A program made the position numbers and the translations under genes. This document shows, piece after piece, positions 8,081-64,000 of a stretch of DNA of 64,000 nucleotides (its first letter is position 1; every line of letters begins with the position of its first letter). Under the pieces are notes generated by a model, which was given only the letters and a program-made list of their open reading frames with translations, made no database searches and was not told where the DNA came from. This stretch comes from Lobosporangium transversale. Taxonomy: Eukaryota. The stretch lies in contig NW_019029015.1 in NCBI RefSeq assembly GCF_002105155.1, positions 186,001-250,000 on the forward strand. Direction: 5' to 3'.

Positions 8081-8844
8081 TGTAGCAGTGTCAAAAACAC
8101 AACTGAGGCAATAAGGAAAACAAGGGATGTGGAGATGAGAAGTGGGTGTATGAGTATAAGGGTGTTCTTCTGGGAATGATCGTGCCAGGAAATTTACTGA
8201 GAGGAGGAGCATCTTTATCGCCAATTTCATTTGGTCATGATACCTTATATTTTTAATCTAAAAACGATGATTGAATTGTTCTGGTGGCATTTCACTACGT
8301 GACGGACTTGCAACAATACTCGCAACAAGCGAGCCAATTGGCTGCCAATACACTCGAAAGTATTCAAAAAATATAAGGTATCATGACCAAATGAAACGGG
8401 CTATATATAAAGAAATAAATAATAGTCGCCTTGTGTGGTCTACCGTCTACAATCTAGTGTGAGTGAGGTAAAGGAAAAGGAAGATCCTTTTGGTGAACTT
8501 CAGTCTCTTGATAAGGGATAAGACCAAGATCAGTCGCGTAGTCGCATGCAATTGCTCGTTTAGTACTAAAAAGGAAGGGGTGCATGTGTTAAAAGGATGG
8601 GTATAGAACTGGAGGAGCACAGCAAAAAAAAAAAAAAAAAAAAAAAAGTGGAGGGATGGGAGAAATAGTCCCAGGGATATCGGAAAGGAATGTGAAAAGT
8701 TCGTGCTCGTTCGGAAAGAAAGTCGAAAAGGAGAGGAACAGACGCAACCTCATCCAATCAATTAATAAATTAATTATTGTGAGGTTAGCAAAACATTAAC
8801 GATACAATGTTGGTCTGTGCTTTCATAGTTCTGAAATTAGTTCG

Positions 8845-9461: not shown

Positions 9462-11346
9462 ACGCCATGAAGCACAGTGAAATGGCATTTTTTAAAGGTT
9501 CACTACAAGGAAAAGCCTTTCGTGTTATCTATCATCTTCAACGGATCCAGTGACACTTATTCGTGAGGATTCGGCCAATTCGGGATGAATATTGCTCAAG
9601 TCTTTCTGACACCTTCGTCAGAAAGAAATATCCATGCTCTTCACACAAGTAGCTCAATGAAAACCACGGTCGTTAGGGTTCTTGGGTAGCACTTACTATT
9701 ATTACTACTATTGTTCCCGATGGCTCTATTGAAGGCGATGAGGTTGCTGTTGTAGATACGGTTGTTATTGTTACTACTGTAGCTGCTATAGTTGCAGTAG
9801 CTGTGATAAATACCGTCGCTATTGTCGTTGTAGTTGGTGGAGCAACTCTGTCTTCTACTGCATCTGCAGCTGAAGACGCCTTCGAGCTTCAGGCGCACGT
9901 TCATCTTGCGGATTGTGACATATCAGTCATATGTAAGTAGTAAAGTAGTAATTTCACTTATCAGAGATTGTCCTTTACCCTACTTAAATCAATAGGAGCT
10001 GATCAATAAAGGGATGAACGTTTCTCATCCACTTTCCTATCCATATGATTCATATTGATCAATGAATTAACCTCTCATCCTAAGCAAAAAAAAAAAAAAA
10101 TTCACACGCATATACAAATCAACAATCGCAAAGCTTTATTTCTTTCCTTTGCGGTTGTTATTTCTACTGGGAGTAAGACGCAGATTATACGTATCTAAAA
10201 AAATGGCCACTAAGACATCGGAGAGACATAAAATGCACCGTTCTCGCTGATATCAATATTGAATATGTTATTAAGCTTTCCTGAGCAGCTTTTTGATTGA
10301 AACACTTACACAGAATAGCTATTCTTCTTTCGCGCACATAAAATAATAATAATAAAAAAACCAATATAAAAAGGACCCTTATTTTTTCTTTTCTCCCTTC
10401 ACACAATTTGTTATCCAATACCTTCATTATCGCCTCATTACCCATTCTTAATCCCCGATTATAAAAACTATTTAACTATTTACTATAACTTATAAAAATA
10501 TAGCCACTACACGACTAGGGCGAAGGCTCCTAAATATCTCTTATCAAGGTAATGGTGCATCTATCGTTATTTTATTGAGGAAAGTGCTTCATTCCTCTTT
10601 TTTTTGGGCGAAAGCATTGGTGACCAGTATCAGTAGCAACATCAAGTTCCTATCCATACTGTATTTGCTTCGATGCAATGCTCAATACGTTACACGCCGG
10701 AAAGGAAAGATATAGTTGTTGACATATATTCGCAACACGAAAACTCAGACTTCCTTGTTTGAGTTTCTTCCTCTCCCTGCCTGGAATGCAGTTATTGTGT
10801 AGTTGTTAACCATTACATTTTCTTTTTGGTATATAGTTAAAATGGGGATAAGAACCAACGCATCAATCGAATTAAAAGCACAGAACCAGGGATTGGCTAC
10901 TTCTTGAGCTTGCCAACTCCAACGAAACTCAGCGCAAAATATTTCGCTCTCGATTATCACAGCTTATTCCCGATGCCAGGGACAAATGCATCGTTGGCGA
11001 TTGGCACTATTGGAAGACTTTCTATTCCAATGACCACGAATGGACTCTGGCATTCACAAACAATAAATTATCGATCCAATGTACTAGACGTTGAAGGAAG
11101 GGTATGTCCAATCGATGTTTAAAAAATCTCAACAGATTTGACGGAGGCTCAACTGGATACCCTTCGGGTCCATTATTTTAGAGACAGTGGTAGGCCTGCT
11201 ACTTCGTAAGAGCAGTGTCCAGTTGTGGTCTCTAAACGTGAATTTTTAATTGAAAATTCCTATTAACGCCGCATTGCTCGTCAATAGAACGAAAGAAGCA
11301 AGAGCTTAATGCGAATAGACGGGTCACCAGGTCGTCCAACAATGGT

Positions 11347-11556
11347 CAGTGCTCCTATTCCATTCGAACATATCGAATTCGAATGGGTTTGAATGCATTC
11401 GAATCGAAAACGAATCATGGTAAGCTCGAATCGATTCGAATGACGCCTTAAGTTACAGATCTCTGGATATTTCGAGTCGTTCGATTACTTCGAGTATCGA
11501 ATTTAGATATCCATTCGAAAACGAATCGAATTCGAATGGTTCGAATAGAAGCACTG
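11347..11556. mobile_element. hAT-type MITE, 210 bp
   Basis: TIRs CAGTGCTCCTATTC / GAATAGAAGCACTG (13/14 match). Flanking 8-mers ACAATGGT and ACAAGGGT (7/8) are a TSD of hAT length. The interior is dense in TTCGAA/TCGA subterminal repeats. Confidence 0.85.
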
Positions 11557-11615
11557 ACAAGGGTCCGGACCTTGAAAAGGATACGCCAACCAACGATTCT
11601 GGCTTTGAACAGGAA

Positions 11616-12107
11616 ATGTCTCATGAATTAACAAGTCCTGACGATATCTCGACATCCAGTTCGGTGCCGCCCGCATCTTCCACTTCGAGTTTATCTTCTG
11701 GATCAACGTCTTCGACTTCGAGCGGTTCCAGTCTTTCGCCTATTGGGATACTACATTTACGAGCTTTCTTCAAAGAAATTTATTATCGTTACCTTGGCCC
11801 AAGACGGCTCACAGATTCTGGAACAGATGTGGGCGAGGCTATGTTTCCATACATTATGGATATGGTTAGAGAGTCCTTGCTACATTCCTTCATCATCGCA
11901 GGCAATCCAGACCCTGCACCATTTCTTTCTGCTGAAGATCAGACTTACAGTCGAGAATACATCCAGACATCAGACAATAATCATATCGAAGCCGCCCTCC
12001 TCGAGGATTGGATGCAAAACGAGTTATCACAGTATCTTCTGTCTCCATCAGACTTAGGCACATTGCTACGGAATGGGGAAAGTAATCTCCAAACCCCGCA
12101 CAAATAA
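11616..12107 (+). other. Hypothetical ORF / gene fragment of unknown function between the two MITE copies
   Basis: 163-aa open frame with a Ser-rich start and protein-like composition. No family recognised; neighbouring frames are broken. Confidence 0.3.
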
Positions 12108-12317
12108 GCGACAGCATTGACCGTGATACTTTCGATAATTTCCGGCTCTCAACTTATCCGGCCATTTTAAAAATATGGAGAGTTTATAACAGAAATCAAT
12201 TCAAACTTCCAGCGAGTCTTGATACGTCAAAGAGCTCTGGGAATTTACTTATGAGATTCTCACCGAAGACGAGTTCAACCATGGCGAAAAATCCTCCACA
12301 GCATCAAGCATCCGTAA

Positions 12318-12478
12318 CAGTGCTCCTATTCGAACCATACGAATTTGATTCGTTTTCGAATGGATATCTAAATTCGATACTCGAAGTAATCGAACGACTC
12401 GAAATATCCAGAGATCTGTAACTTAAGGCGTCATTCGATCATTCGAGCTTACCATGATTCGTTTTCGATTCGAATGCA
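12318..12478 (-). mobile_element. Truncated inverted second copy of the hAT-type MITE
   Basis: Begins CAGTGCTCCTATTCGAACC and is the reverse complement of 11394-11556. It is cut off exactly where the long inverted-repeat arm begins. Confidence 0.85.
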
Positions 12479-12742
12479 CGTATAATCTGCGTCTTACTCC
12501 CAGTAGAAATAACAACCGCAAAGGAAAGAAATAAAGCTTTGCGATTGTTGATTTGTATATGCGTGTGAATTTTTTTTTTTTTTTTTGCTATAGGATGAGA
12601 GGTTAATTCATTGATCAATATGAATCATATGGATAGGAAAGTGGATGAAAAACGTTCATCCCTTTATTGATCAGCTCCTACTGATTTTAAGTAAGATAAA
12701 GGACAACTTCTGATTGATAACTGATAATTGATAAGTGATCTA

Positions 12743-15585: not shown

Positions 15586-16712
15586 TTACAATTTCTGCAG
15601 CTCAGCACACTCCTTGCGTGCTTCGAACAATTCATTCGAATTGACTTTCAAGTGGCAGGCCAAATCATCTGCATTCGAAACATGGTAACCCAACTCGGAG
15701 AGTAAACCTCTTTGGATGTCATAGACCATCCCAATGACTTCGATGGACTGTCCACGTTCCCATGCGGCTCTAATGATGGGCGATTTAGCAACAGTGAGGA
15801 CTGAGTTCCTGCAGTTGATCTCGACCAAGGCACGACAGCGATCCTCTTGGTCCCTAATCTTCTCTAGATTGAGGAGGTGTTGATGTTTGACTTCCTTAAT
15901 ATTGGCAAGCCAATGATCGATCAATCCATAGGACTGGTCACCAAGTGCAGCAGCGACGCCACCGCAGCCATAATGACCACAGACGACCACGTGCTCAACC
16001 TTCAGGACATCGACAGCGTACTGCAATACAGAGAGACAGTTGAGATCTGTGCTAACAACGACATTGGCGATGTTACGGTGAGTGAAGACTTCACCAGGCG
16101 CTAAATAGATTGGGATTATAGCAGGAGTGGAAAATGATAGTAATTCAGTTGAGTGCAAGATAAGGTTAGTTGTGCCGATCAAGTCCTGGGATGCATAACT
16201 TTGATACACAGATACGCAAAATTCTTATCCCCAAAAAAAAAAAAAAAATTACCGAGTTGAAGCAATTCATTCTCAGGGACACGGGAATCAGAACATCCGA
16301 TCCAAAAGACCTTGGGTTGTTGGCCTTTTGAACCTTTTTCAAAGAAATCAGGCTGGCGCTCTCGGATGGCTTTGGACCATTTGCGATTGTTCTTCAACAG
16401 ACGAGCCAAACCATGTTCATGACCGATTGATGGGCTAGGACCTAATGTAACTGGTGACCTTGGACAGCAAGCATCATCATCACTATCATCATCCTCTTCC
16501 ATGTGGTGATGAGTATGTTCTGGACTACCATATTTATGAAGCAAGGCGCTAGATTGATGGTGATGACTATGATTGTGCTGGTGTTTCTTTTCAGGAACCT
16601 CTGCTGGAAATGTTGGCGATAGGGCTTCGACATGACCGGCGACATCAGGAACCTCAGCAACTACAATAGAGCGAGGGAATCCGTTGGGGATAGCGGCCGG
16701 TGATGATGACAT
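15586..16712 (-). CDS. Beta-class carbonic anhydrase (NCE103-like); intron 16252-16101
   Basis: Zn-ligand motifs WIGCSDSRVP, GEVFTHRNIAN and CGHYGCGG. His-rich N-terminal extension. Confidence 0.95.
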
Positions 16713-18440
16713 GACTTGACACTAGCAATCGGTGAAAGGAAGCTAAAAAATAAGAGTTCCAAAATTAGGAGACAAAGAGAGGGAAAGGAGAGAATGAAAG
16801 AGAAAGGAGGAAAAAAAAAAAAAAAGAAATGTGAACTGAGCCAAGGCTTCCTCTACATATTTGTACAAATATAAGACGTCCATAAGAGCTTTGAGAAGCG
16901 TGATTGTTTATATTACCTGAGGGGTAGGCTTACACAAATCTGGAACGGATGCTTTACACCTTTGTTTGATTGGATAAAAATGATAGGCTATAGAATAACG
17001 AAAAGATGAAGGAGTAAAATTAAGAGATAAAGAAATGAAAAGAAAAAAGAAAAGAAAAGAAGGTCAACGGTTGATTTATATAACAAATTTGAGCTATTTT
17101 ATTCTCGTAGATTACGTGGTTATCATTGCAAAAAAGAACAAGGTTCACCACCAATTGTTGGATCTCAATGCCTTCGAAGCCGAATGCTCAATTAGACTTT
17201 ATCCGGTCTGGACTAGACGTCGGCAATGATAAAAAAAAAAAAAAAAAAACTCCGCACATGCATGGAATCATGTATAAAGTAATCAATGAATAATGTAGCG
17301 TGTATCTCTTTGCATTTTTAAATAAATATATTAGATAAACCTTGCAATACTGTACGGTCGTTAAACTTTTTTGTTACCTAATGCATTAGTTGCAGGATTA
17401 GCATTGTGCATTGATTGTTTTATGTAGGTCAAGCAGAAAGTATTTTATCAGGGAAAATCTCGGACACTACGCAGCAGAATATCTATTTTGATCTATGAAG
17501 TGGCACACCGTACATGTAGCTAATGACAAGGTTTTTTTTTACCTGTGAAATTCATAGAATACAAGACAGAGTTTCCGTTCAATTAAACTCAAGCCTCAGG
17601 AACTTTAACATGATTATCATCGAACAAAATTTGACCGCGATTACAACCAGGTACATCCTTTGGATGCCCTGAAACATCAAAAGGAAAAATGGTGACCACA
17701 TGGCATGGGTACAACCACTTTGCAAGTTGTCGCTCAGTTGATTTAGACGTCAGCAAAAGGGTGTCCTGAGTTTTTGTGTCCAAATTATTTTGCTTTTAAG
17801 AAACAGTGTGGCACTTCATCAATTAGGAGCGAAATCTCTCTTACTTTGAGAAGAGTATTTAAAGACTTTGGTGAAAAATATTTTGCGGATAGATAGTAAC
17901 AGTAGAAAAAGTAAGTGAGAATAAGATGTGGGTCCACACACCACACCCATGGATTCTTTATTCATTTCTGGTAGAGGGGCTTGTACCAGATAACTACATA
18001 TCTATCTATAAGACAGCATGGGTTCTCATGTCAAAGATTTGTCGCGTCTTAGTGTGACGCTTTATTGCCACTAGTTTCTACTGCTAGTTTTATTTTTTTA
18101 TCGTACTATTTCAGTTGAAATTTCTCTAGTGTGTTTTTTTTAAGATCTTCCTTGTTTTTTAGTCGGACCATTATTAAATTGCATATTGAAATATGCAACA
18201 TTTGGATAATGGCGTGGTGTCTTTTGCCATTAGCAAATTATACACATATCGTGCGCCAAAAGTTTGGCCTACGGAATCACGTGGTTATGTTTAATTCCAC
18301 ACATGGAGTACAGCACAATCTTGGCCCTATTACATTACTGAAAACAGTCACGCAAATGGTCCTCGACGCCTGCACTCCGAACTAGACTAGTGTGTTTGCT
18401 GACACGCAGATATTGTCTACACTATGTAAAACTATGTGAG

Positions 18441-21400
18441 CTACATATGCTCAATGTGAATTCTCTTGCTACCTCTAGGCTCCTCTCCTTGCTCGGTCGG
18501 CGCCTGTCGCTTGATCGCTCTCTTTTCTCCGCTGTCCATGGAAATATTCTTATTTTTGTTTGGCACAAGGTAGGATGGTCGTTCTTGATAAAGTAGATGG
18601 CCTTGGACAATGTTGGCTATGTTATGCCCTGCCATGATGTCTCTGTGCATAAATGCCTTGCAGCTGCTGCAATACAGTCGACGGATCTCAACCTGACCAA
18701 CAAATTCTTGACAGATAGGACATTTTTTTGAGGTGTAGTATTCGTTTACGCCAACAACGATGTACCCAAAAGATCGGGCCTAATGAGGTAGGAGAGCAAG
18801 ATAAGTTACAATGTGACAACAACGGCAATATAAAGCAATGACCAACAGTTTTCCCATGGCTAGCTTGGCCGGCCACTGTTTCAACTACTACTTGAAACAG
18901 TATAGCCACCGGCCAAGTTTATTTTGTAATATTGAGCGAGTCCTTACCTTATTCACAAATACGATTGGAATGATTCGTGTAACGAAGACAGCCTGGTATT
19001 AGACGAAAACTTGCCAAGACCCACTCCGATCACCACCTTATCTCCTTCATTTACCTTCGCTCCAATTGACCCGCCAACTATCTTGAGCAGACTGTTGGCA
19101 ATCTTCTTGTATTCTTCAACCCGAGCCCTTTTCGCATCCCACCTATGTTTCTTGATGACATTGTTGCTGCTATAGAAGGAATCTAGGCCTTTCTCCACGT
19201 CTCTAAGCTTCTCAATGTAGTTTTTTATGCTTGCATCATTTCCACGAAGAGACGGTAGGCTACTCTCAATGTCACTAATGGACTGTGAACCGTAGACCGC
19301 TGCTGCCTTCCGCTGCTCCATCCAATGTCGGTATTTGAGAGTGGGCTGGTACGCTGCCTTCTGCTTGACGGCCAAGTTGTAAAATCTGGATGTCTGGGTC
19401 GCCGTGTTGGTGAGCTCACTACTTGGTAACAACGCGCTTGCTCCGACGATGAAAGACTGCCCTAAATCTAGACCTAAAATATTGATTTCTTCTGGCTTGC
19501 AGCCCAAAGGTCGGTGATATCTTGCTTAGTACTCACTACATTCCTTATCTCGGTCACGAAATAGTCTGTGCCGCCAAGAGTGGAATTGATCCTAAAAGGT
19601 AATCTTTCCTCGGGAAGTCGCCGATATTTTACCGCATTGAGTTCGTTCAATTTGAATGCTAGCAATTAGAGACGAAACCCATCAGTTCGAATTGACCCTC
19701 GTAAAATATAACCGCGCTTGTCGTAAGTCTGAGGCCCGGGCACGAAGTCATCCTCTCGAATGTATCGAATGTGCTCTCTCATCATGCTGAGTGGCATTAT
19801 GGAAGTTGTAGCCTTAAATCCTTTGTATTTCTTACGCTCTTCCTCTTCAAAGCCACCAATGTCAGTTAGCAGACTTGTAATGAGATACCCAGGGTCCCTG
19901 CCCGAGAGCCACACTCTAAGGTCGGCTTTCGAGGGTGTGCAAGTGAAGTCACCTCTGGCATAACTTGAAGTTCAGCTTTGAGTTCATTGTCTTGCCAAAA
20001 GATCTCAATCAGTTCTAACTCTGAGAGATTTATAAAGCCATCTTCAAAAGCGGACAACGGAGCAAGTTTTCGACTGTTATTGCAGCTTTTGTTCAGGCGA
20101 ACAAAGTTCTCTACTGCGGATATGCTAGGGTCGATACTGCTTGCTGTGTCTACAAGTAGCAGACCCTTGTTCTTGAGAGCTTCGATCTGTTATAAAAGGA
20201 ATGAAGATATTAGAATATCATTCGCCGTTATCTTACTCAATGATAAAACTTGAGTGGGGATGATAGCACTCATTAGAGCTAGGCGCGCATACCTTTTCAC
20301 AAAGTGCTTGTGCGCCCTCCTTATAATTCCTCCTTAACTCAACCTTGAGTTGCGTGGCAGTTGATCTCAGGACAACTGAGCCTGGATAGCGCATTCTTGT
20401 ATTGATCGAGCCAGCATCTGCCATAGCTGGCAAAAAGTCCTTGGCCTTATGGATGAAGTTGAGCACATGAGGATCCTTTACGTTGCCAGTTGGGGGCCTC
20501 TTGTTATAGATACACATGAGAAGTGATAGCAGGAAGGTCGTGTTGGCATCATTCGTTTCGTTCTCATCATTCTCTACATTATCCTTCTTCTCAGCTCCAT
20601 TGGGGCCTTCATTGCCGGCCACACTCTTGCTAAATATACGTGGGCAGATAAGATCGAGCAGTTTTCTGTCTGTGTTGCTGACATCGGTAGCTGAAAGCTG
20701 CTCAATGTACTGGCCAATAGCTCTCTCAAGTGCGCTTGGTCTTCGAAGCATGGCGAACGACTTCTTGGAGACAGGCTTTAATCTTGGATCTCAATTGGGG
20801 CTTATCAGTCAATATTCTATTCAGGTTGCCGTTGACCGCCCCAATGTCAAGAGTCCTAGTTGGGTGTTCATACTGCATAGCCCTAACCAAGTCTGTTTTA
20901 TCCATTCCGTCCACCGCTTTTTGTGGCTTTTTCGACTTTTCCTTCTCTTTCTTTTTCTTCTGCTTGCTAGAAGCAAGGGCATTCGTATTGGGATTGTCTT
21001 TGTATTTTTTCTGTTTGTATTGCTTCATGATCTCCGGAGGGACATGCTCGAGCTTTCGGGAGCGAGTTTTGAATGAACATCGCTCTCGGTACTTGCATTT
21101 TCTCCCTGAAGAGTGAGAAGGAGGCCATTGGACAGGAGCTCGGTCAACAGAGCGAAAGATATTGAATGTATCCGAGTGATTGTTCGACTGGGATGAACTA
21201 TCGACGGAACCAATGTCCATGTGAAGGCTGTAAAGGCGGGTTAGTTCGATGAAAATGTAGGGAAAAGGGATAAAAAGTAAGGCTAATGTCAGTGCATTAC
21301 CTCTTATCTATTCTCCTATTCATTTTTAATTGCTCGCGGATTGACGCCAGTCTCTGTAGCAGGCTTTCATGAGTCACGGGAACGTGTATGGAAGTCTGAA

Positions 21401-21536
21401 ATGCAACAGGAAGAGATTTTCTCTGTTACAGATCCACGAAAACCCTTATAGAGTCTTCAAAATATCCGTCAGCTACCTCCTTTCCCCTCACCTCATTGTG
21501 TCTCAAGTATTCCTGGATCATGTTCCTGGGATCTTT

Positions 21537-21572
<36 letters not shown>

Positions 21573-22374
21573 AAAGAGAGAGTTTGATGTGAAATTCAGT
21601 CTTTTAGAAGCGTGCAATCCTGTGGTATACCATTGCCTTCTCCAACCTGCTCCTTGACAATTCTGTAGTTGGTGACACTTCCAAGCCGGGAAATGTTGCT
21701 TGTGTAGTCGTTCTTGCTCACGATACACAGTACCGTCAATTGGGATCGTGTAATGTTTAGGGTGGTGAGTACGTCTGCAAGCTTGTACACTAAAATGTGA
21801 TCTCTTGAGATAGGGCGCCAAACCGTTGAGATATTCTTGTATGCGAGCATGTCACTGTCTCGGGAGACAACTACATCCTCGAGCTGGCAATCAGTCGCAT
21901 GTATTTCGCGAATGATTCTCGTGCTTCTTTTGACCAATGAAAGGCCATATCCAACGCCTTTATTACGGCAACGAACTGTTCCTTTCGGACTCGACTCTTG
22001 CTTTGCACGCGTTGGTATAGTTCATCGAGCCCTTGTTGGGCGTCCATCAATGCCTTGGCTCGTACTTCCTCTCGATATATATGAGTATGTTTTTTTTCCT
22101 CACAGGCGTCACCGTCAAGATACAGGATAAGGTTTTCTGGTGTTCCATACTTCCCCAGCTCTCTTTCCATGATCTTGTGGGCTGTATCGAGGGAATGATT
22201 GGAATATGCGTTTTGAATTATGGGATGTAAGGTTCCTAGGACATCGAACCTTATGTAGGCGTTGCAATTGAAGGGATTGAAAGGATTAGAGGTGGCGCAG
22301 ATTAACGAATGGTAGTGGAGAGTTGCCTCGTAGCCTGTCTTTAGAAGAAAAGACCAGAGGCCCTCGATTCCCAT
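18441..22374 (-). pseudogene. Copy A: XPG/FEN1-like PIN nuclease fused to a Fanzor/TnpB-like RuvC nuclease; spliced, disrupted by several frameshifts and stops
   Basis: PIN part: MGIEGLWSFL, RFDVLG, YLDG..EEK, VVSRDSD, H3TH-like CIVSKNDY...G. Fanzor part: SIRTDG, RuvC-I ILGLDLG, VVIGVGLG; after intron 18947-18780, ARSFGYIVVGVNEYYTSKKCPIC..YCSSC..MHRDIMAGHNIANI (RuvC-II E, zinc finger, RuvC-III D). Confidence 0.85.
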
Positions 22375-22748
22375 TGCTAAGAAGTGATATCAATATGGAT
22401 ATGGGAATATCGATGGAGCTGTTAGAGAGAAAGAGGTGTTGAAAAAAAATCGTGTGAATTTTTGCATGGTGTTTCACGTGGCATCTTTCCAAAAAAAAAA
22501 AAAAAAAAAAATTGACTGGTGTGAACGGGCATGGTGTTTTTTAACATAAAAATTGGCAAATACACTAGCGAGTCAGTGAAGCATCACACAAGGAACCGTC
22601 GGCGGCACTTGATGGTATTATCATTGTCAATATGAATATATATAGATATATATATATGCCTAGCGCGCTGCCGCACCGAAGCAAAACTTACCAGTGCTTG
22701 CTGCGTGTTCTTCTCTGCTCTGTTTGAAATCTTGATCATAACCTAGGC

Positions 22749-25380
22749 ATGGACCTCTTGACGATAAAATACATCTTACCATACTCGCTAAATTTTAATC
22801 CACATCAGTCGGTAGCCCCCTATCCCATTCCTAAGGAGATACCCGACCCTTTTACTACGGCTTTCACATTCAACGCGTTCCGTGAATTTTGGAGCCAAGA
22901 AAGACTTGCGTACCAATGGGCAGAGTGTTCGGAAAAGAACTCTCGATTCATTCTTGCCCACAAAGAGAATCTGGATAAACCACTTCCTACGCACAGTAAG
23001 GCATATCCTGGCCGCGGTCGTCCACGTGAATTCGATTGGACAATCAAGTACGTCTGTTGGCGCCAAGGTCCGAAAGAAGAGTTGACCATTCACCGGGAAT
23101 CAGTTGGTAATAAATGTCCGGTCTATATCAGGATTAAAAAACCTGTTGAGCAAGACTGGGTCATGGTGGAGTATTATAGACATCACAACCATGGAACTTC
23201 AACAAAGTCTAGGGTCGCTCTTCCTCTGAGCCCTAACGAGCGTAACTGGATGAAGTCAATGGTCTCCAGCAGCCATGACTGGAAATATATCAAGAATGAA
23301 CTGAGGCCAAGTGAAGAAGCTCTTCAGGCGGTAATGGTCGTCCAAGCATGTATTAAATATTTTTGCATTTACTTAGGCAATGACTAATATCCCATGACTT
23401 ACAGGTTGAGGCAGAGACGAAAAGTGTCCCTCCAAGCTTCCTTATCACTTACAACGATGCACGCGCAACGATTTATCGTAAACAGATAAAGGAATTTACA
23501 AGAGGTGATAGCGTTGTTACCAGTGTTGAGGGATGGATGAAGGAGATTCAAGCAAACGGGGGTAAAGGATAGTTTGCTAATGAAATTGATGTCAACGACC
23601 CTCAAAGCTATTTGATTGCCTGGTGTACGAAGTTCCAATTGGAGGTAAGGATTGCTCAGATCCGATATGATCCAACTGGCGTTAACGTTACTTATCGTCC
23701 TCGTTTCTGTCTTCAACAGGTCGCAAAGGACAATAGCTTGATAGCCTGCATGGACTCCACACGGAGAGTCGCTATGTCTCTGAGAGAAGATAAGGATAAA
23801 AAGGGCAATAAGGGAAAGGGCAAAAAGGATAGCAGTTCTTCAGCCTGCCTGTTTACGATCCTTGTCAAGGATCGAGTTTTGAGAAAGGCGTTCCAGTTGC
23901 CCATATGCTATGCAGCTCAGAGTCATCGTATGTTTGAGCATAGTCTAGTAACGATGTGAAGAAATTGTTTATCAAACTGAGACCATTGTATTATGTTCAA
24001 CAACAGGTTCCTCATAGAGAGATGGTTATCATGGCTCAGAACCGAGTGCGGTTTCAAGATGTCAAAGTTCATGGTAGACTGTTCTGTGACACAGAGTAAG
24101 GCCATTCAAGAGGTATTCCCTTCCGCATCAGTTTACTTCTGCCACTTTCATGTGCAGAAGTTATGGAAAGACCGCATGAGGGATGTGTTCAAGGTAAGAT
24201 ATATCATGTTAATGCTCAACCAAGATACCTTTGGCGATAATAACATTTTAACGCGACTCCATACTCTTTAGGAGCGATAGGTTTGCTTAAAGAAATGCGC
24301 ATTGCAAGGTCTGACGAAAAAGTTAATGACATCTGGAAAGGTATCAAGGACCAATTTTATGATCCGAGCAATGACAAAACAAGCCTCTTCTTTAACTATA
24401 TAGAAAAGAACTGGATCGCGAAAGAGAAGAGACCAAGATGGGTGCTTTTCCTGAGAGAGGTAAGATAAAGCACCAGTAAACGGCGGTATTAAATGACTTC
24501 TTCGACGAATTTCAATATCCGACATCCTAATACACCTAATAGGACTACCAACACGTAAATACACACAACCTTCTGGAGTCTTGGTTCAACGCTTTGAAGA
24601 CACATGCGCTGGAAGGGAAGCGCGGTTTACGAATTGATTTCCTCATATATAAATTGCAGGGACCCATTGACCAGGACTTCAGGACACAGTATTTCAAGGT
24701 CAAAAATTGAATACGACTCGCAACGCTTTCACAGTACGGCCAAGAAAGACTGGCGAGAGCAATGGCAGTAAGTCCCGTGGAGGCAAGGGCCATGGTATGC
24801 GAGAAGTTAGTCGAGAAAGAGGTATGTGTTGAAAATCGATAATATCAAAAGTTTGATTGTATATGGATAGGTTCTAATCTCTTTCGCTCTACAAAGTTCG
24901 CGGTAAAGTCGTCCGAAGAATCTGGAGTAGAGTATTCCGTTGCCGCGGATGTAGAGAGGGGCCTCCTTCAGTCATGTTCATGCCCCGACTATGTCCGACA
25001 GAAGATCCCTTGCAAACACATGTATTTAGTGTCAAGGATTTACGACGGCTTCGATGTTCAATATGCCGCTGCTCCTTCGCACATTGAACATTAGAACAGG
25101 CACTTAGAGTTCGACTTAGGGCCTCCTCTCGAGAGCTTTATCTCACCAGTTTTACTGCGTGAGCTGGATATGATGAGAACAAAAGAGAGGGAAGAAAAGA
25201 AGAGAAAAAGAGAAGAAGTCACCACCCAAGCGTTTGAAGAGTGTGAAGAAGAGCTTATGGTCCTGTGGAAGGAGCTGGGCCGTATAGTATATAATAGGAT
25301 ATGCGAGACTCAATAGCAGAACTGAGGAATGTAATCCGTACAATGACAGCGAGGGGTGTTCAAGCACCTGAACAAATTGA
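22749..25380 (+). mobile_element. Mutator/MULE-family DDE transposase, spliced and decayed (pseudogene)
   Basis: N-terminal FAR1/WRKY-GCM1-like finger (YVCWRQG..KCPVYI..HHNH). Catalytic motifs CMDST, FMVDCS...YFCHFHV and NLLESWFNALK. C-terminal SWIM finger CSCPDYVRQKIPCKHMY (~24975-25025). Frameshifts and stops present; no TIRs identified. Confidence 0.88.
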
Positions 25381-25582
25381 CTATAAAAAGTAACAAATCA
25401 GCTGATCTCTTTGTTTTTGGGCCATTGTGCTACACCCCACACATGCAATGACGTAGATATGGCCGGTGAATTTGAGTTTGATTCCGCCCACTGATAGAAA
25501 GTTCTCTCCTCTTCTATTGTATTGCATCTTGCCTCGCCAAACAACACGCTTCAACTTTCACCTTAATCATCCTCATTTCACC

Positions 25583-27230
25583 ATGGCTACTGTTCAGGAC
25601 CTATTTGCTCAAGGCAGCCACGCCTTTGCGGACGAGGACTACGAAGAAGCCCTCAACTTTTACACAAAGGCCATTGAGATCAATGCATCTCATGTCGAGA
25701 TTTTCTTAAAAAGGTACTTATTTTTATTGTAACTTATTTCAAGGCAAAATTCATACTAAAAAACGTACCTTGAACCATTCACACGCTAACCTACATAGGT
25801 CGACTACCTATCAAAAGCTGGGTAAGGACAAAGAGGCTTACGAAGATGCACTTAAGGCATTGGAGTTAATCAAGGAAAGGCCTTCAGTCGATGTCTCTGT
25901 TGAGGCAAAAGCTCAGCTTCGAAAGGGGTAGGTGTCAACGCCAGCAATAGCCTTCAAGTAACTCTTTACGACTTTGTTGTATCTATGCAAATACGTCGGT
26001 GTTAACTTTCATGATTTCTTTTTGTTTTGCTTTGTTTTGTTTTCTTTACCACAGAGTTGCAGCTTATCATATCCAGGACTATCAAACTGCAAAGGCAGCT
26101 TTGGAAGCATGCCACGCTCTCAGCCCTGAGCAGAGAACGTTGGCAAGCTGGATGCGTAAGGTTGACCAGGAGCTTGCCAAACAGCCTAAAACTATCCCAG
26201 CCCCAACTCCTACCTCTGCGTCTGCTGCCACCTCGACTGCGGCAGCTGCCCCTGCACCTACCCCCGCTCCCGCCCCTGTTCCCGCTCCAGCAGTGACCCC
26301 CGCTGTTCACCGTGTCAGGTAAAGTTTTATAAATAAAGCTGACTTTTTTGCAGACGCGTTTTGTGTTCTGAGCATAGTGATTATTAACACCTTGCTCAAA
26401 GATAAACTGACAAGTTGAATGAAATTACCACACTTTTATTTTAATAGACATGAGTGGTACCAAAATGATACCTATGTTACTATCAGTGTTTTCATCAAGA
26501 ATGTCAAGAAAGAGTCTGTTGACATCAATATCACTGAGAATGCTGTAAGGAACTTGTTTTTTTTTTTTTTTTTTTTTTTTTTAATTCTCTCATCTTGACT
26601 CAAAACTAACCATTAGCTTTGTTTCTTATTTGATGCTAGTTGTCGGTTTCTGTCAAGATGCCTACTGGCTCGGATTATTCTCTGGAGCTTGATCCATTGA
26701 GCCACGCTATTGTGCCCTCAGAGAGTAAATATGAGGTGCTGTCGACCAAGATTGAGATCCAGCTCAAGAAGGCGAGCTTTGGTATCAAGTGGGGAGCTCT
26801 TGAGGGAGATGATGTGAATGCAGGTTCAATGGCCAGTACCACAGCATCCGCTGTGCCAGCTTATCCTTCCTCATCCAAAAAGTCAAAGAACTGGGATGCT
26901 TTGGAGAAAGAGGCTGCCAAGGAGGAGGAAAAGGCTGATGGTGATAAGGCTTTGAACCAGCTCTTTGCTCAGATTTACAAGGATGCAGATGATAACACAA
27001 AGCGCGCCATGATGAAGAGCTTCACTGAAAGTAATGGAACCTGCTTGTCAACCAACTGGGACGAGGTCAGCAAGGGAACTGTTGAGACTCGTCCCCCTGA
27101 GGGCATGATCGCCAAAAAGGTAACTTAAAAAAAAAGAAAAGGCATTTTTTTCTTCAACGTTTCTTACAGCGCAGTATCTTATTTTCGTTTTATTTTATTA
27201 TCTTTTTCGGACTCTTAGTATGCGGCGTAA
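25583..27230 (+). CDS. SGT1: SGT1 co-chaperone (TPR-CS-SGS), multi-exon
   Basis: TPR N-terminus, CS domain (RHEWYQ..V) and SGS motif YPSSS..KNWD..RAMMKSFTESNGTCLSTNW. A probable last mini-exon at 27219-27230 gives ...KKYAA*. Confidence 0.94.
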
Positions 27231-55700: not shown

Positions 55701-56975
55701 CAATTTTATTACCAATGCATCACTTATCATGTCACTTTTGGTGTAAATGGATAGTGTATGTTCGTGTTTAATGGAAGCAAGGGAGAGTATGAGTACATTA
55801 CCAACGGCAGTGTATGCCTCCACCACGTCCCTCATGGTGTAAGGAAGAGAACAAGAATTGCTTTACGAAACGGAAGAACCCTTGCCATCGCTAATTTCGC
55901 CATCGACTAAGTTTGGAAGTCAATAGATTGTATTGTGATAGAGGCGTACTCATCTACCAACTGCGTTAATAGAGCGAAAGTGATGCCCCCACCCCTGCCG
56001 CTCTCTATCCAAAAATGAGCACTGCATATACTCATCTTTTCGAGCATGTCTCAAGAATTATCGGCCACTTAATAAAGATAGTCCTGCTACTTGAAGATGT
56101 ACAGTATGTGTTTGTATATGTCTATATGTTTATGTGCCATGTATTGGTGCTCTAGATGGCTTGATCTCACCAATAATACTTTTTTTTGCTTAGAGTGGTC
56201 GTGGGCTGCATTCTAGATACAGTGTCTCCAAATGCGCAGGAGTACTTCGAACATGCGCATCAAGGTCTGTTTGTTCACCCAGTATCATTGAAGGGTTTGA
56301 CGGGCGCCCATCCGCTTCGATCATCCGGGAGTATAAAGGCTGCCTGGTTAAGCATGGAAAGGCTCTTTTTTTTCTGCCATTCTCGCCGTAGAAAATGGCT
56401 TTTTTTCTAAGTCCAGACTAGGATATTGATTTGATTGAGAACGAACGAGGAATGAGAAAAAAGAATGGTATATTTCGCGTAAAAAGAGTCATCATGCTCT
56501 AATTAATCAATTAATTACCTTTAATTAAGATAGTGTGCTTAGAGATGGAAACGAGAATTGTGGAGTAGATTCAAATGTTAGAATAATAAAATGTTAGAAT
56601 AATAGATGGCAATGCAGATGATGGAAACAAGAGATGATTGGTAAAAATGAGGCTAGTGATTTGGGTGTGTGTGTAGGACCGATTAAAAAGCGCCATCCCG
56701 TTTGTCTAAAGGGTAAGTGGATAGTGATGGCTTCGTTCATAAAGGATGAACGATTGTAAAGAATACTCAATAGATATGGTATTTTCATTACAAGACAAAA
56801 TTCCTTTCACTTGATTGACATTCGACTCTTTTCTTCATGCTTGAACCTCGGCGGTCCTCCTGCATATGCGGTATTGATGTGAGTTTTTATGACACACTGT
56901 CCCGCATGTTTTAAATATTTAGGTGTTGCTTTAACATTCTGACCATTGTTGATAACGAGCTTCTGAATCTTAAGC

Positions 56976-57806
56976 TTGACGTGTATGTCGCCTGGGACCA
57001 TGAAACAGAGGAATGTGATATTGTCACTTTTCTCCGAAGTTTGGTCGGTTTCTCTTCAAGCAGGTTCCAGTAATATTATCGGCCATCCAATTATCAAGTC
57101 CCAGAAAATAATACTGGCCAGGATCAAAGATGAGCGCCATCAGCAGATAGCTAATGCAAGAAGCCTGTCCTATGAGGATTTCATGGAGTTGTGCGAGTTG
57201 CCTGAGCTCACACATGCAGATAAGTATGCAGTGTCTAAATATCGCTTGATGAAAGCCTACAATATAGCCACACCTGACATTATGACGCCTGAGTGGGTCA
57301 AGGATTATGATAATGAGAAAGAGAAAAGCGTTTACAAGAACCTGTGCTCTCTATACACCACTAATAGCACCACTTTGGAAGATAGACTAGAGGCTGTCCG
57401 ACAAAGGGAGGAGGCTAGACTAGGATTATGCCCAAAAACCAAAGTGCATCACAATCTTGAAGGCTCGCGATATGTCAAATTGCGATATGCAGCGGATATC
57501 ATGACATCATGTGGATTCACAGATGTATTCGCCAGTAATACTGTGCAAGCACAGACTCTCAAAGAAGGAATCAGAAGGATATGGGAAGGCGTTTTGAAGG
57601 AAATGGATAACACTTGCATAGCACTGGATAGAAAGAAACCAACGCACAATAATTGGATATTCAAACACCAACTAGGGTATCTAAACAATATTTTACATGA
57701 TGTGCTTGGTGTTAAGATTGTGGGAGTCAACAAACGCTGTGCGAAATATCATCTGGTGCACTACTCAAAGGTTGCTTCACTACGGCAGATGTCCTTTGAT
57801 ATTTAA
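56976..57806 (+). pseudogene. Intronless ORF resembling the C-terminal part of giant-virus-like (UL9-type) replication origin-binding helicases; N-terminus missing
   Basis: Pattern IANARSLSYEDF..L..ELTHADKYAVSKYRL..Y...PEWVKDY...VYKNL recalled from that family. No helicase motifs are in the fragment, so this is recognition by eye only. Confidence 0.45.
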
Positions 57807-58484: not shown

Positions 58485-61400
58485 CTACTGTTGTTGCCGG
58501 CTTGTCTCTCCCCCTCCTCCTGGACCCAGCAAAGGTCCTTTCGGTGGTCTTGATCCCTCTACTCCTCCTCCTCCTTCATCTGAAAATTTCCTTTTTCTGA
58601 TTCCTCCACTGCCACTTCCACCACTACCTCCCTCTCCTCCTCCTCCTTCCCCCGGGCTTAACAAAGGTTCCTTCGATGGTCTCGAACCCTCAACTTCCCC
58701 TCCTCCATCATCCGAGAATTTTCTTTTTGTGGTTCTGCCACTACCACTACCACTACCACTACCTCCTACCCCTGGACTCAACAAAAGCCCTTTCGGTGGT
58801 CTTGATCCCTCTACTCCTCCTCCTCCTCCTTCATCTGAAAATTTCCTTTTTGTGGTTCTGCTGCTACCACCACCACTGCCACCACTGCCACCACTACCTC
58901 CACCGCCGCCACTACCGCTAGAAGCTTGGCCTTGAGTTCCTCCGTCCGGCGGCATATATTTTGCAGGTCGTTTTTGCTCTCTTATCTGCGACTCACAGAC
59001 CCTTGCGATGTTCTCAGCACCAACAGCATCTCGATCAAAGTATGCTTTACAATTTCGACAGTACTTGGATCGAAAAGGAACATTCTCCAATATACTGTCA
59101 CAGTGAGGCCGTGGACACTTGGCAGATGTGTAGTATTCATGACAACCTGCAATGGGGTAGTCTAGAGATTTTGCCTGTTCGAGCCAGATTTAATACTCGT
59201 TAAAAAAGAGACTCAAAAATTGAATGTCATTGATCAAGGGATTTTTTTTTTACCTTTTCAACAAGCTTCTTCATCAATATCCCATGCTTCGATACTTGTC
59301 CTCGGTTTGTCTTGAATGATCCTAGTCCAATACAGATCACCACATTCGTATTGGCATCTCTTCTTCTTCCATTGCTTCCGCCCGCAAGCTTCAGAATTGC
59401 CTTGATCACATAATCAACGCATCCGTTCTGTGCTTTTCTATTATCCCAGCTATTCCGAACAAACCACCCGTCATTATAGAAATCGACAAGCGCCCTATAT
59501 ATAGTCTCCCTATTGTCGTCACTGGTCCCAGATCCACTGCTACTACTGGCCTCAACTCCACTGCTACTACCGGTCCCTGCTCCACTGCTACTACTGGCCC
59601 CAACCCCACTACCAGAGAAACTACCTCCAGTACTTGATGGAGCTTGATTTAGCGGCAAGCTCATATAAGCGAAATACTGTGTTAAAGTAGGCCTTGAGAA
59701 TGACGGAATATTGCTTTCAATCTCTGTAATTCCTCTTCTAAGCTTTCGCCTCTCTAGCTCGCCCTGAAACTTCTTGGATGGTTTGTAAAGGTACGCTCTA
59801 GAAATCCGGAGGATCTCACGTTCGTTAGGTTTCCTTGGATCCAACTTTGCAATTGTCATCGAGTACCTCTCGCCTGGATCGATCCCAATGATAATGGTAC
59901 TTTCGGGGGGAGGGCATGCTGCCTGGGTGTCATATTTAACTTCTACATTCTCGAGGAGACGGGATCTCTGCTTCCAGTTGATCTCACGCCGGGGACTGGG
60001 ACTCACCGGGGACAGTGGATTTGTGCTCGATGTACCTTTGTTGCGATTAGCAGTCATTTACATGGGTTTTTACTATAGCTAAGATTTTTACCCTTTTTAT
60101 TTAACGAAGATCCCCGGATCATAATAAACACATCTTTCTTTCGTTCTCGTTACTTATTATGATCCTGGCATATTTCAACCTTCTTCAGCTGCTTCTTCTC
60201 CCTCTTCGCCATCTAAGAATGGTTCATCAACTTCCAGCAAGTCAATATCGCTGATACCCAGCAAGATATCGTCATCTTCATTTCCGTCGTCGTCTCCATC
60301 ATCACCACCATCACCTGCACCATGGCCTGAAGACGAGGATCCCTGCTGAGCACTTGAAGAAGCCTGGACTGCTTGAGATCTTTGAGTATCCGAAGGTTGG
60401 GCAGCTTGCGAACCTCTACCTCTTTTTTGCTTCGATGTGTCAAAGGCAAGAAGTGTTAGGGCAAGGCCGTTTGTAAAGAACGATGTCCGTAGTTTCCTTC
60501 TAGGGCCATCATCAGATTGCAGTCCAACGTCCTTGTATCCTTTCAAGGAAAACAGCTCCTGCAACAATATCCCCTTGTAGTTAAGGATCTTGTCCTCTGC
60601 AGCCCCCTTGGTACTCATGTTTAGTTCCAACAATTGGACTATTTCCTCTCGAACTGTTGGATTAGACCATAATATATCCAGGAGACAGACTTCCGTTAAG
60701 CAGAGAGACCGAGGCAAGAAAGCAGACGTAGGGAAATCCAGATATTTTTTGGCAGTTGCATTTTGCTCAAAAAAGAATTGGATGGAACTTCTTCCATCGC
60801 CTGGAATATCTATGTCAAACTAGACATTATATTGAAGAAATGATTAGGAACATTTCTATAAACATATTATAAGATAACCTCAAAATATTATAATATTATA
60901 TTTACCTGCGCATTCCGATAGTGAGACCTTAGCGCTGCTTGAACAGGGACCATGACCATCCGAGACGACCTGCTGATCACCAAATCGGGATAGATCTGGT
61001 TTAAAGGACCAAGCCCTGTGTTTGCATAGAAGTTTTCGTATGCTTTGAGCTGGGACGGCTTGGCTACGTTCCCTTCGCCTTTTTTCTTCACTTCCCTGCT
61101 ATACCTAGATAATGGACTCATCACTCCGTGATACAACAACGCAGCAAGGCCGTAAATAAAGTCCCTGCTATCAAGAACTTCATCTAGGAGTTGTGGGAGA
61201 TCAGCTGGATTGGATGGCCCAGTGGTAAGCAGGTTATCGATCCACAAGGCGCAGGCCCAGAAAGCTCGAATCCGTGCCTCATTCAACATTTTAATAAATG
61301 ATTGAATGAGCCCTTGAATTGTTGCAGCAAGTTGCTCGGGATTGAGATTGGGATCGGAAGTAGAGTCCAGCTTGGCAACTACACATGTCTTCAACGTGCC

Positions 61401-62855
61401 CAGAGTTAATGCAACAGTGGGGTGGGCCCTCTTCAACCGTCGGTCCTCGGCAGTAGCCTCCTTCACTTTCCTGGTCTTATCAGTCTTTCTGATATACTTG
61501 GCCTTCCCTTTGTTCTTCTTTTTTTTCTTCTTTTCCTCCTTAACCTCCTCTTTGTCATCCTCTTTTTTTTCCTTTTCCTTTTTTTGGGGGACTTTCTTTG
61601 ACGGCTGGAGCTGACGGGACGGTCGTGTTGTTTGCAGTTGGTCAGGTCATATTTCTTAGGGGAAAGTTCCTTTTTCTGGGTAGGGAAAACAGGCCGATAG
61701 CGATTCGGCTTTGCGCGTTTAGGGATATAGAATCTAATTAGGAACAACAATGTCAAGGGTTAGATGACTTTTTTTTTTTTTTTTTTTTTTTTTTTGTATA
61801 TGCTTTGGAAAATGTTCATTTGAAGGAGCTTACCTGGGTTGAGGTTGATTATTTTTATTCTGGTACCTAGCAGATATCGCAGTCCTCATTCTATCATGGT
61901 AATGAAGGAATCTTTCAGCGGTTGGTTGCTGTGAAGCCTGGGTTTGGATCCTACCAAAGAAAACATTAATTGAATGGTCAAACTGGCCTTCTGCAGGAGT
62001 TCGACGGCTACGGGCATGGACCTCACGAACATATGATACCGTCAACTTTTCGGCATCAGTGTCAGTGAGCGCAGAGATAATCTCAGCATTTGTAGCAAGA
62101 CCAAAGGTTGGGATATTTGGGGTGTAATCGTTATCGGATATAACGCCATAGACCAGGAGTTGACTGTCCCTTGAAAACCCAAGGGCTTGCAGGACCTCTT
62201 GTTTCTCATAGAGTGCAAACATGTGATGGCGACGAGGGATTGGACGAAGAACTCTTTTTATAGAAGGATAGATGAGAAGGTCAGAGTCCCCAGACACAGC
62301 GATACTGGTTGGTGTACATTTGGCGGCAATACACACATCAGCCTCATTTCTACAATGGCAAATCACAAAGTTATTGTATCGACCGAATGGCGCCGCGAGC
62401 TCCCTCTTCTCGTTATGACTGAATGTGAAGAGCTGTCGAAGATTCTTTTTAATGGCAATCATATGGCTTCGAGATTCCCATTTGCCTTCATTGGACTTGG
62501 TTTCCATGTTGGCTATGAGCGTATCGAGTTTTGCATCCGCTGCTGTACGCTTAGCATCTCGGTCCCTATAGGCGCGCGTTTTTTCTTCGCAGCGAGGCCC
62601 ATCAATGTGTATCGTCACTGTGGCAAGAGGACCAAAGATTTTTCGAATGATACTAGCCATAGCATGGCCGCAGGCAGTGAAAGAACTCTGCCGGCTGAAT
62701 CTCCTTAGGATGATATTATGTATATCGCTGTGGAAAGTGCCAAGCAGATCCAGCTCAAAAGATGAATGGGGTTCAGCAGCAAGCTCATGTACATCAATCT
62801 CCTTTGGTGGCAGGTCTCTCCTTGAAAGGTATGAATAGAGTCCTTTAATACCCAT
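58485..62855 (-). CDS. Copy B: XPG/FEN1-like PIN nuclease fused to a Fanzor/TnpB-like RuvC nuclease, ~1320 aa, 5 exons (62855-61834, 61733-60906, 60819-60180, 60035-59254, 59174-58485); one apparent 1-nt frameshift in exon 2
   Basis: PIN part: MGIKGLYSYL, ELDLLG, HIDG..EEK, NEADV, SGDSD, GVISDNDY..G. Fanzor part: SFFTNG, RuvC-I IIGIDPG, VVICIGLG, RuvC-II CHEYYTSAKC, zinc finger CPRPHC..CRNC, RuvC-III FDRDAVGAENI. Exons sum to 3962 nt, one base short of an open frame. Confidence 0.85.
58500..58920 (-). repeat. Three ~40-aa coding repeats (KRKFSD-GGG-VEGSRP-K--LL-PG with Gly/Ser spacers) forming the C-terminal tail of copy B
   Basis: Visible in ORF 58485-59090 and in the DNA (CTTTCGGTGGTCTTGATCCCTCTACTCCTCC recurs). 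Confidence 0.9.
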
Positions 62856-63275: not shown

Positions 63276-64000
63276 CCTCGGTATGTGTATCTGTCTGAAC
63301 ACGTCCTAACTGACATCCTCTCGACAATCCTTCCAAGGCTGCAGTGTTTGAATGTGTACAGGGAACAAAAGAGGTCTAGATACAGGCTCTCTTTGTGACA
63401 TTGAAGGAGATCGCATGTTTCATGGCTATCGAGACAAGGTACCCCTACAGGCACAAGACAAAGGTATAACTCGGTTCAAACTCAAAGGAACGGTTTTGCC
63501 AATGGCCTTGTTCTGAATCCACTTGCCTATGACACAGTCCAGACGAAGAGACAGCAGCAGTCTGACGTAGATGAAGAAGATCTCAGCCAGGAATTGAAAC
63601 TTTCTCAAGGATTCCTTAACACGGCGTGTTTTAAAGGCAGCCGGTGAAGACCTGACAGATAAAGACTACGCAAACATAAACTGGAAGAGGAGCCCCAAAC
63701 TTCTTGAAAACGTTGGACTCATATTCCATGAGCTAGGGCGATGCTCATCTGCAAATACCACAACTACCGTCTAATGCGATCCTGGTATTGTTAATGCCCT
63801 TACGTTTTCTTCGCTAGACCGTCACAACCCTGACCTGCGTCAAACGGTGAAGGTGAGAAGTAGGCTCGTCAACAGCCTGTGTGCCTTATATGCGTTGCAC
63901 CAATGCTCACTGACAGGTTGAGTCCAAATTCGAGATACCAAAATAGCCTTCTTTGAATCCATGGGGAGGAAAGACACCAAGCCGGCAACAACAATAGGAT
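63276..64000 (+). pseudogene. Copy C: decayed internal fragment of the same Fanzor-like family, running to the window end
   Basis: Manual translation: PRYVYLSEHVLTDIL (copy B PRSLCLTEVCLLDIL); RFKLKGT/ANGLVLNPLAYDT (RRKLRTSFFTNGLALTLLAFDT); NINWKRSPKLLENV...V*CDPG...LDRHNPD (EINWKQRSRLLENV...IGIDPG...LDPRKPN). Stop at 63772 and frameshifts. Confidence 0.8.

Follow-up and report, generated by a model that had tools for sequence, protein, structure and literature searches.

Within a 64,000-nucleotide (nt) stretch of the Lobosporangium transversale genome (contig NW_019029015.1, positions 186,001 to 250,000; hereafter the window), a decayed gene that we call copy A combines a 5′-nuclease head with a Fanzor1, a nuclease of the RNA-guided type. 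Two further members, the diverged paralogue copy B and fragment C, lie in the same window, and all three are broken; the locus of copy A matters only as evidence for its family. As a reading of the sequence without database searches had proposed, the fusion of head and Fanzor is almost certainly a real conserved family: at least seven Mortierellaceae genera have single fused gene models, the catalytic residues of both halves are conserved, the trees of the two halves are congruent, introns are shared between copies A and B, a spliced junction links the head to the Fanzor part, and near-identical copies are dispersed within genomes. The family is a real and old two-nuclease variant of Fanzor1, whose sequences are already catalogued as Fz1 with the head apparently unremarked.

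A 5′ nuclease joined to a Fanzor1

The sequence-only reading had called the 5′ half a PIN domain. A PIN core is present, together with a helical arch and an H3TH-type region, and the half is more exactly described as a complete Rad2/XPG-family (FEN1/EXO1-like) 5′ nuclease. In the predicted model of an intact relative, P0014 (mean predicted local distance difference test score, pLDDT, 83; predicted template modelling score, pTM, 0.65), residues 2-296 superpose on EXO1 with Z 22.8 and a root-mean-square deviation (rmsd) of 2.7 Å over 271 aligned residues, and residues 445-1122 on PpFz with Z 18.2 and an rmsd of 3.8 Å over 481. A fold search with P0014 returned SpuFz1 (E 2e-11 over ~800 columns) and EXO1 (E 6e-9 over ~340), the same two families were recovered with the model of P0007, from the other clade, and the best seven Foldseek matches, with intact relatives rather than copy A as query, were SpuFz, GtFz and PpFz. 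Against solved chains, the family profile matched EXO1 (E 7e-5) and SpuFz1 (2e-4) as well as FEN1/Rad2, and a second profile placed Rad2 (3e-11) and FEN1 on top. Because identity is only 14-20%, the head subfamily stays between EXO1, which comes first by fold and by the E-A-D motif, and Rad2/FEN1, which come first by the second profile. The nearest Atlas clusters of the head hold giant-virus XPG/FEN1-like and poxvirus G5 proteins, which is a lead only.

The seven acids of the head were conserved across 22 two-domain proteins, where aligned, in the order D 17/17, D 22/22, E 20/20, D 20/20, D 21/22, D 22/22 and D 22/22, and the basic gateway residues K and R were each present in 21 of the 22. 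The motifs E-A-D, D-S-D and D-Y align with EXO1 E150/D152, D171/D173 and D225, as counted from the alignment; the two N-terminal acids and the K/R pair are presumed assignments, made by motif and residue numbering. All nine of these residues were found in the family and in copy B, and copy A has them except for the E and D of E-A-D. Of 32 proteins with 1000 aa or more, 16 have all ten catalytic acids (seven in the head plus the RuvC D-E-D triad), and the rest are mostly truncated models. In the RuvC part the E was conserved in 16/16 and the third D in 14/14 proteins where aligned, with the E followed by the first finger cysteine as E-YYTSKK-C in copy A and E-YYTSAK-C in copy B. Both copies carry the D-X(n)-TS-XX-C4 finger-X(5,50)-RD motif of Bao and Jurka and match Cas12f1-like_TNB (PF07282) above the Pfam cut-off (E 7e-12 for copy A), while the head of copy A matches XPG_I below it (E 5e-5).

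The likeness to Fanzor1 (SpuFz1, PDB 8gkh/9cey; GtFz1, 9cer; PpFz1, 9cf0) covers the whole WED/REC/RuvC/TNB fold, the D-E-D triad, the position of its E six residues ahead of the C4 finger, the introns and the many decayed copies. To this plan the family adds a 5′-nuclease domain of ~300 aa and a linker of ~150 aa, reaching 1130-1540 aa against ~600-800 aa in the available descriptions of Fanzor1. The likeness to Rad2/XPG nucleases (EXO1 7mxr, FEN1 3q8k, viral FEN1-like proteins and poxvirus G5) extends over a complete catalytic domain (Z 21-23, 2.6-2.9 Å, ~270 residues); unlike these enzymes, the head is fused to an RNA-guided-type nuclease, and the genes are multi-copy and often dead.

Members of the family are already present in published tables. 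In the available portion of the Saito 2023 table, 16 rows contain the five head motifs searched, all 16 from Mortierellaceae and labelled FZ1; in that of the Yoon 2023 table there are 42 head-motif occurrences, of which the 18 listed are all from Mortierellaceae and include P0014 and P0082. No PIN domain is named in the accessible main texts of Saito, Jiang and Yoon, XPG has no match in that of Jiang, and neither PIN nor XPG is used as a name for such a domain in the searched portions of the supplements. A literature search covering titles and the starts of abstracts, outside subscription journals and Repbase, returned no description of the fusion.

One gene with a shared history

All 16 blocks that the sequence-only reading had quoted from copies A and B were found, in the order given and on the minus strand (Table 1), and its observation of a common domain order with no nucleotide similarity was confirmed: blastn at word size 7 gave no match between the copies beyond low-complexity sequence. 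The proteins, read through with X, align at 25.7% identity over 553 columns (E 1e-30) and 25.4% over 307 columns (E 2e-23), a similarity far beyond chance. Three intron positions are also common to both copies, one after the head helix (phase 2 in each), one mid-gene (phase 0, a few codons apart) and one exactly ahead of the A-R/K-S-x-x-Y block.

The join itself is spliced. In contigs of sequencing run X5 we found GT-AG joints at 21301/21227 (also 21197), at 20293/20186 and at the last intron of copy A, the first of which connects the exon that ends the head with the exon that starts the Fanzor part; the DNA runs X1 and X3 contain no exact X5 joints. No run is recorded as RNA, and X5 was judged to be RNA because of these joints and because it has no cover on the flank; as the evidence consists of contigs, a single full-length transcript is not provable from it and small-RNA ends are not visible. 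The X5 transcript, which extends in spliced form to 18339, is ~2-3% divergent from the window and has neither the stop at 19668 nor three of the copy A frameshifts. It carries 1-nt and 7-nt deletions of its own and is therefore also broken.

For the congruence check that the sequence-only reading had suggested, IQ-TREE trees of each half were built from 22 proteins (20 from databases plus copies A and B; P0064 was excluded for short head cover). Of 19 splits, 9 are common to the head and RuvC trees, where 2000 relabellings never gave more than 3; no conflicting splits reach a support of at least 90, and the Mantel correlation between the halves is 0.92. The clades of copy A and copy B are separated at support 100 in each tree, and branching inside the copy A clade is weakly supported in both.

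All named homologues found were from Mortierellaceae, and the DNA of the window is intron-rich. With the copy B head as query against proteins of 598-2000 aa, a range that leaves head-only proteins of 188-597 aa outside the search, all four matches had a RuvC part. The copy A RuvC exon, searched against proteins of 313-2000 aa, gave 68 matches, 12 with a head and 56 without, and among those of at least 1000 aa the head was present in 12 of 14. The sequence-only reading had held that a majority of homologues with one half alone would speak against the fusion; read literally, the records of the RuvC half show such a majority, but each of the 68 starts within the family profile, 65 of them with 30 or fewer unmatched N-terminal residues and three with 32-52, and they therefore look like truncated records rather than Fanzors with another N-terminus. 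Four models, namely the two headless matches in this length class and another two Fanzor models that are nearly complete, have their first residue at profile positions 238-288, within the tail of the head, and a 96% identical sibling of one of the four has the full head. The 54 short matches comprise 26 JGI/ENA/Logan contigs, 11 NCBI partials and 17 NCBI models that are not marked as partial, among which real headless copies could hide. Since the four hidden Markov models (HMMs) used were built from the long family proteins themselves, their E-values are circular for long proteins, and the identity of the head rests on Pfam, PDB and fold.

The full protein is matched by a 58-member Atlas cluster, whose representative has 1312 aa, and looking up the clusters of 10 further proteins, 8 of them headless models, gained one new member. 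Word-based scans, which are weak for distant relatives, found a relative encoded in none of 151 and none of 41 pattern matches on viral contigs and in none of 26 prokaryote genomes. In a viral fold library the two halves were matched, among the matches listed, only in separate proteins, none of them above 880 aa. A metagenome scan yielded 4 loci out of 399 matches; all four end before a full head could show and are therefore uninformative on co-occurrence. In P0025 (PF04188) and KAF9348689.1 (glycosyl transferase; Saito table row 348) a Fanzor fragment is joined to a host membrane enzyme, and both are probably merged gene models.

A possible role for the head in break repair

Fanzors are believed to safeguard their elements in that empty sites are cut and the host then copies the element back in. 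PMC13565253 reviews the restorative homing of OMEGA systems (papers given by PMC number are cited for the portions of text available), and the homing evidence it cites concerns prokaryotic TnpB and IscB and not Fanzors. A large old clade that keeps a complete 5′ nuclease on the cutter points to the missing step, the control of break repair. Both predicted active sites are preserved in many intact relatives, and the protein therefore probably makes an RNA-guided DNA cut whose ends it goes on to trim. We place about even confidence in the reading that intact members serve a mobile element as RNA-guided DNA cutters, with a head that would trim the 5′ strands at the cut and so favour repair by copying the element back. 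Judging from Fanzor1 homology, an ωRNA from the 3′ end of the element (candidate 18430-17960) would guide RuvC to the empty or excised site; by analogy with Rad2-family chemistry, the head would then remove 5′ overhangs or flaps to leave 3′ tails, which would push repair to homologous recombination with the element-bearing template. The moving enzyme may be a cut-and-paste transposase, acting in cis or in trans, for which the MULE next to copy A is a candidate. Poxviruses that have lost the FEN1-like G5R are impaired in double-strand-break repair (PMC9415595). Control of break repair by the fused protein would be testable via two point mutants in one protein.

Signs of mobility come from the dispersed copies. 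Of 10 clusters looked up, 5 contain long copies that are 96.3-98.6% identical and sit on separate contigs within one named organism (GBAus27b twice, Benniella, M. alpina with four copies, and L. hyalina). Named cultured fungi carry intact copies of recent duplication (P0014/P0082, P0006/P0096 and P0008/P0099-P0101), from which guide RNA and element ends should be readable directly.

The 470 nt between the copy A stop and the putative element end have a folding z of -4.0 on the gene strand against -1.8 on the opposite strand, and five 120-nt windows with z of -3 or below fall in this segment, compared with 0/120 among random windows. Known Fz1 ωRNAs measure 75-150 nt (PMC11423790), and therefore at most part of the segment would be a scaffold; no Rfam match was obtained for it. 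The high-copy repeat that overlaps the segment (Table 1) probably forms the 3′ terminus of the element or of its non-autonomous derivatives. In run X1, summed contig depth reached 780 and 219 in the end repeat and 9 on the unique flank, with an inward drop to 66 and 35, values that are a hint and not a copy number. Runs X1 and X3 gave 115 and 121 contigs in four identity bands, with depth rising from ~30 inside to 780 at 17838-17979, and a flank contig terminates at 17901. This rise hints at an element end shared with short derivatives, though it could also come from an unrelated repeat.

The MULE/MuDR transposase remnant stands head-to-head with copy A, starting ~370 nt upstream on the opposite strand. 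Fungal Fanzor1 elements tied to the MuDR superfamily show inverted repeats and 9-bp duplications but have no transposase gene of their own (PMC3627910); copy A resembles them in adjoining a MULE remnant, and differs in that no repeats were found around it and a second nuclease is fused.

Several observations weigh against this reading in one part or another. The second residue of RuvC-I is L in 10, P in 8, G in 2, S in 1 and a gap in 1 of the 22 proteins, the copy A clade having DLG or DGG and the copy B clade DPG; Fanzors are nearly always DPG at this site (PMC10711439), and the DLG member P0004 is still labelled FZ1 in the available part of the Saito table. Tree congruence is expected of any single gene, is partly driven by the two deep clades, and was measured on proteins selected for having both halves. 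No folding comparable to that after copy A was seen 3′ of copy B or of two further family loci, L001 and L004 (the L004 stretch follows a truncated gene), and no 3′ motif is common to the four. No inverted partner of 17860-18160 rose above shuffles in any of four candidate regions, and none was found in 16700-25700, where decay could hide it; a target-site duplication for the 17870 end was not found around copy A, and no empty site was seen, run X7 covering the end repeat and neither gene nor flank. With no inverted repeat, target-site duplication or empty site, the element stays undefined. The link between the MULE and copy A is a candidate only, being based on one locus. Engineered T5 or TREX fusions on MmeFz2 resemble the family in joining a guided cutter to an end-processing nuclease, and such exonuclease fusions reduced MmeFz2 editing, with indels rather than homologous repair as the readout (PMC12923547); the family fusion differs in being natural, old and tuned by evolution, with a FEN1/EXO1-type head.

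It is also conceivable, if rather unlikely, that the fused protein is the whole mobility machine, the RNA-guided cut and 5′ processing driving copying by host recombination with no transposase. The dispersal of near-identical copies would fit such spread, as would the lack of detectable inverted repeats around copy A, the finding of no transposase beside copy B within the window, and the host gene that ends ~235 nt past the stop at L001. However, copy A does have a MULE transposase head-to-head with it, Fanzor1 elements often lack a transposase of their own and have their ends moved in trans (PMC3627910, PMC10432273), and homing alone leaves jumps to new loci unexplained. If true, this would make the family a natural 'guide, cut and resect' selfish element and a ready-made editor biased to homologous repair.

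We think it unlikely that the head acts instead on RNA or R-loops, either in 5′-end maturation of the ωRNA from the mRNA 3′ region or in removal of the displaced flap. Rad2-family enzymes cut RNA-containing flaps, and the structured segment directly follows the stop and lies partly inside the spliced transcript. Nevertheless, the best structural matches are DNA-bound EXO1 and FEN1, and known Fanzor1 proteins work without such a head (PMC10432273). Domestication of the family as a guided nuclease in host defence or repair, which its presence across Mortierellaceae genera and its transcription with normal splicing could suggest, seems improbable given that all three window copies are broken, that the X5 transcript has frameshifts of its own and that copies are young, dispersed and multiple. 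Least plausible is a 5′-nuclease fragment captured by chance as passive cargo, or a gene-prediction artefact, which the headless RuvC-half records and the intron between the halves might recall and which is already largely refuted by the spliced junction, the near-invariant head acids across clades ~25% identical, the agreement of the half-trees and the lack of any record with a foreign N-terminus longer than 52 residues.

Family copies and other features of the window

Table 1 Coordinates of family copies, matching blocks and adjoining features in the window.
Feature	Position	Strand	Remarks
Copy A, decayed gene, 5 exons, 5′-nuclease head and Fanzor1	18441..22374	-	~1150 aa when read through with X
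Copy A FEN1/EXO1-like head and C-terminal helix (exons 1-2)	21301..22374	-
Copy A intron 1	21630-21533	-	inferred from sequence only
Copy A GT-AG intron, head exon to Fanzor exon	21228..21300	-	phase 2, shared with copy B; alternative acceptor 21198
Copy A Fanzor1 part: linker, WED/REC, RuvC, C4 zinc finger (TNB)	18441..21227	-
Copy A introns in Fanzor1 part	20292-20187 and 18947-18780	-
Copy B, paralogue from the other (DPG) clade	58485..62855	-	all seven head acids and D-E-D present
Copy B introns	61833-61734, 60905-60820, 59253-59175	-	first is phase 2, shared with copy A
Copy B probable fourth intron	60179-60036	-	in frame, branch-point-like CTAAT, weak donor; predicted from sequence
Fragment C, third family member, internally deleted	63400..64000	+	tblastn E 5e-11; cut by window edge
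Block 1, copy A MGIEGLW	A 22374; B counterpart 62855	-
Block 2, copy A EHPTRTLDIG	A 20869; B counterpart 61427	-
Block 3, copy A INLSELELIEIFW	A 20033; B counterpart 60705	-
Block 4, copy A SIRTDGFRL	A 19695; B counterpart 60483	-
Block 5, copy A GLDLG	A 19474; B counterpart 59886	-
Block 6, copy A VVIGVGLGKF	A 19036; B counterpart 59343	-
Block 7, copy A NEYYTSKKC	A 18746; B counterpart 59141	-
Block 8, copy A HRDIMAGHNI	A 18647; B counterpart 59036	-
Stops	A 18441; B 58485	-
Structured segment, candidate ωRNA-bearing region	17960..18430	-	directly 3′ of copy A stop
High-copy repeat	17870..18150	.	summed contig depth, runs X1 and X3
Decayed MULE/MuDR transposase	22728..25340	+	FAR1 E 0.0016, MULE E 1.7e-4, SWIM E 1.3e-7

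Copy A shares 50% identity with P0014 across 1213 columns. Its description as a dead gene with a surviving RuvC triad was correct: both reported stops (21428-21426 and 19668-19666) are present together with five frameshifts (~21900, 20726, 19963, 19502 and 18957), and the triad (D 19468, E 18743, D 18641) and the four cysteines of the C4 finger are kept. The frameshift at ~21900 is a deletion of roughly 16 codons that removes the C-x-x-E-A-D motif, and because of this loss the head is dead too. The last intron, at 168 nt longer than the others, contains a palindrome (18875-18901) and a flanking inverted repeat (18820-18925), possibly a small insertion.

Copy B has a single frameshift, near 61600 beside A/C runs; this could be genuine or stem from faulty sequencing. 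Its C-terminus (58485-58940, minus strand) is an extension of three Gly/Ser-rich repeats, each with a basic RKRKFSD-like motif that could be a nuclear-localisation signal. Fragment C runs from WED to RuvC-I and then continues with a C-terminal end as in copy B, to which it lies head-to-head; the stop regions of the two are identical at 21 of 22 nt.

At L001 (1630-1870) the Fanzor stop lies only about 235 nt from where a convergent sorting-nexin-like gene ends, so that in that clade little space is left to hold an element end or a guide RNA. The gene just past the end of the MULE remnant is presumably of the SGT1 type. Tail-to-tail with copy B, at 56967-57806 on the plus strand, is an open reading frame (ORF) of 279 aa with no Pfam match, preceded by weaker remnants from ~55700; it may resemble the C-terminus of origin-binding-protein-like genes that belong to mobile elements of early-diverging fungi. 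At 8216-8405 a 39-nt inverted repeat (92%) flanks 112 nt in the manner of a miniature inverted-repeat transposable element. Nested inverted repeats at 9986-12687 (arms 9986-10192/12478-12687 and 11394-11556/12318-12478, 95-100% complementary) enclose a 227-aa ORF with no Pfam match and have the appearance of a young fold-back or terminal-inverted-repeat element.

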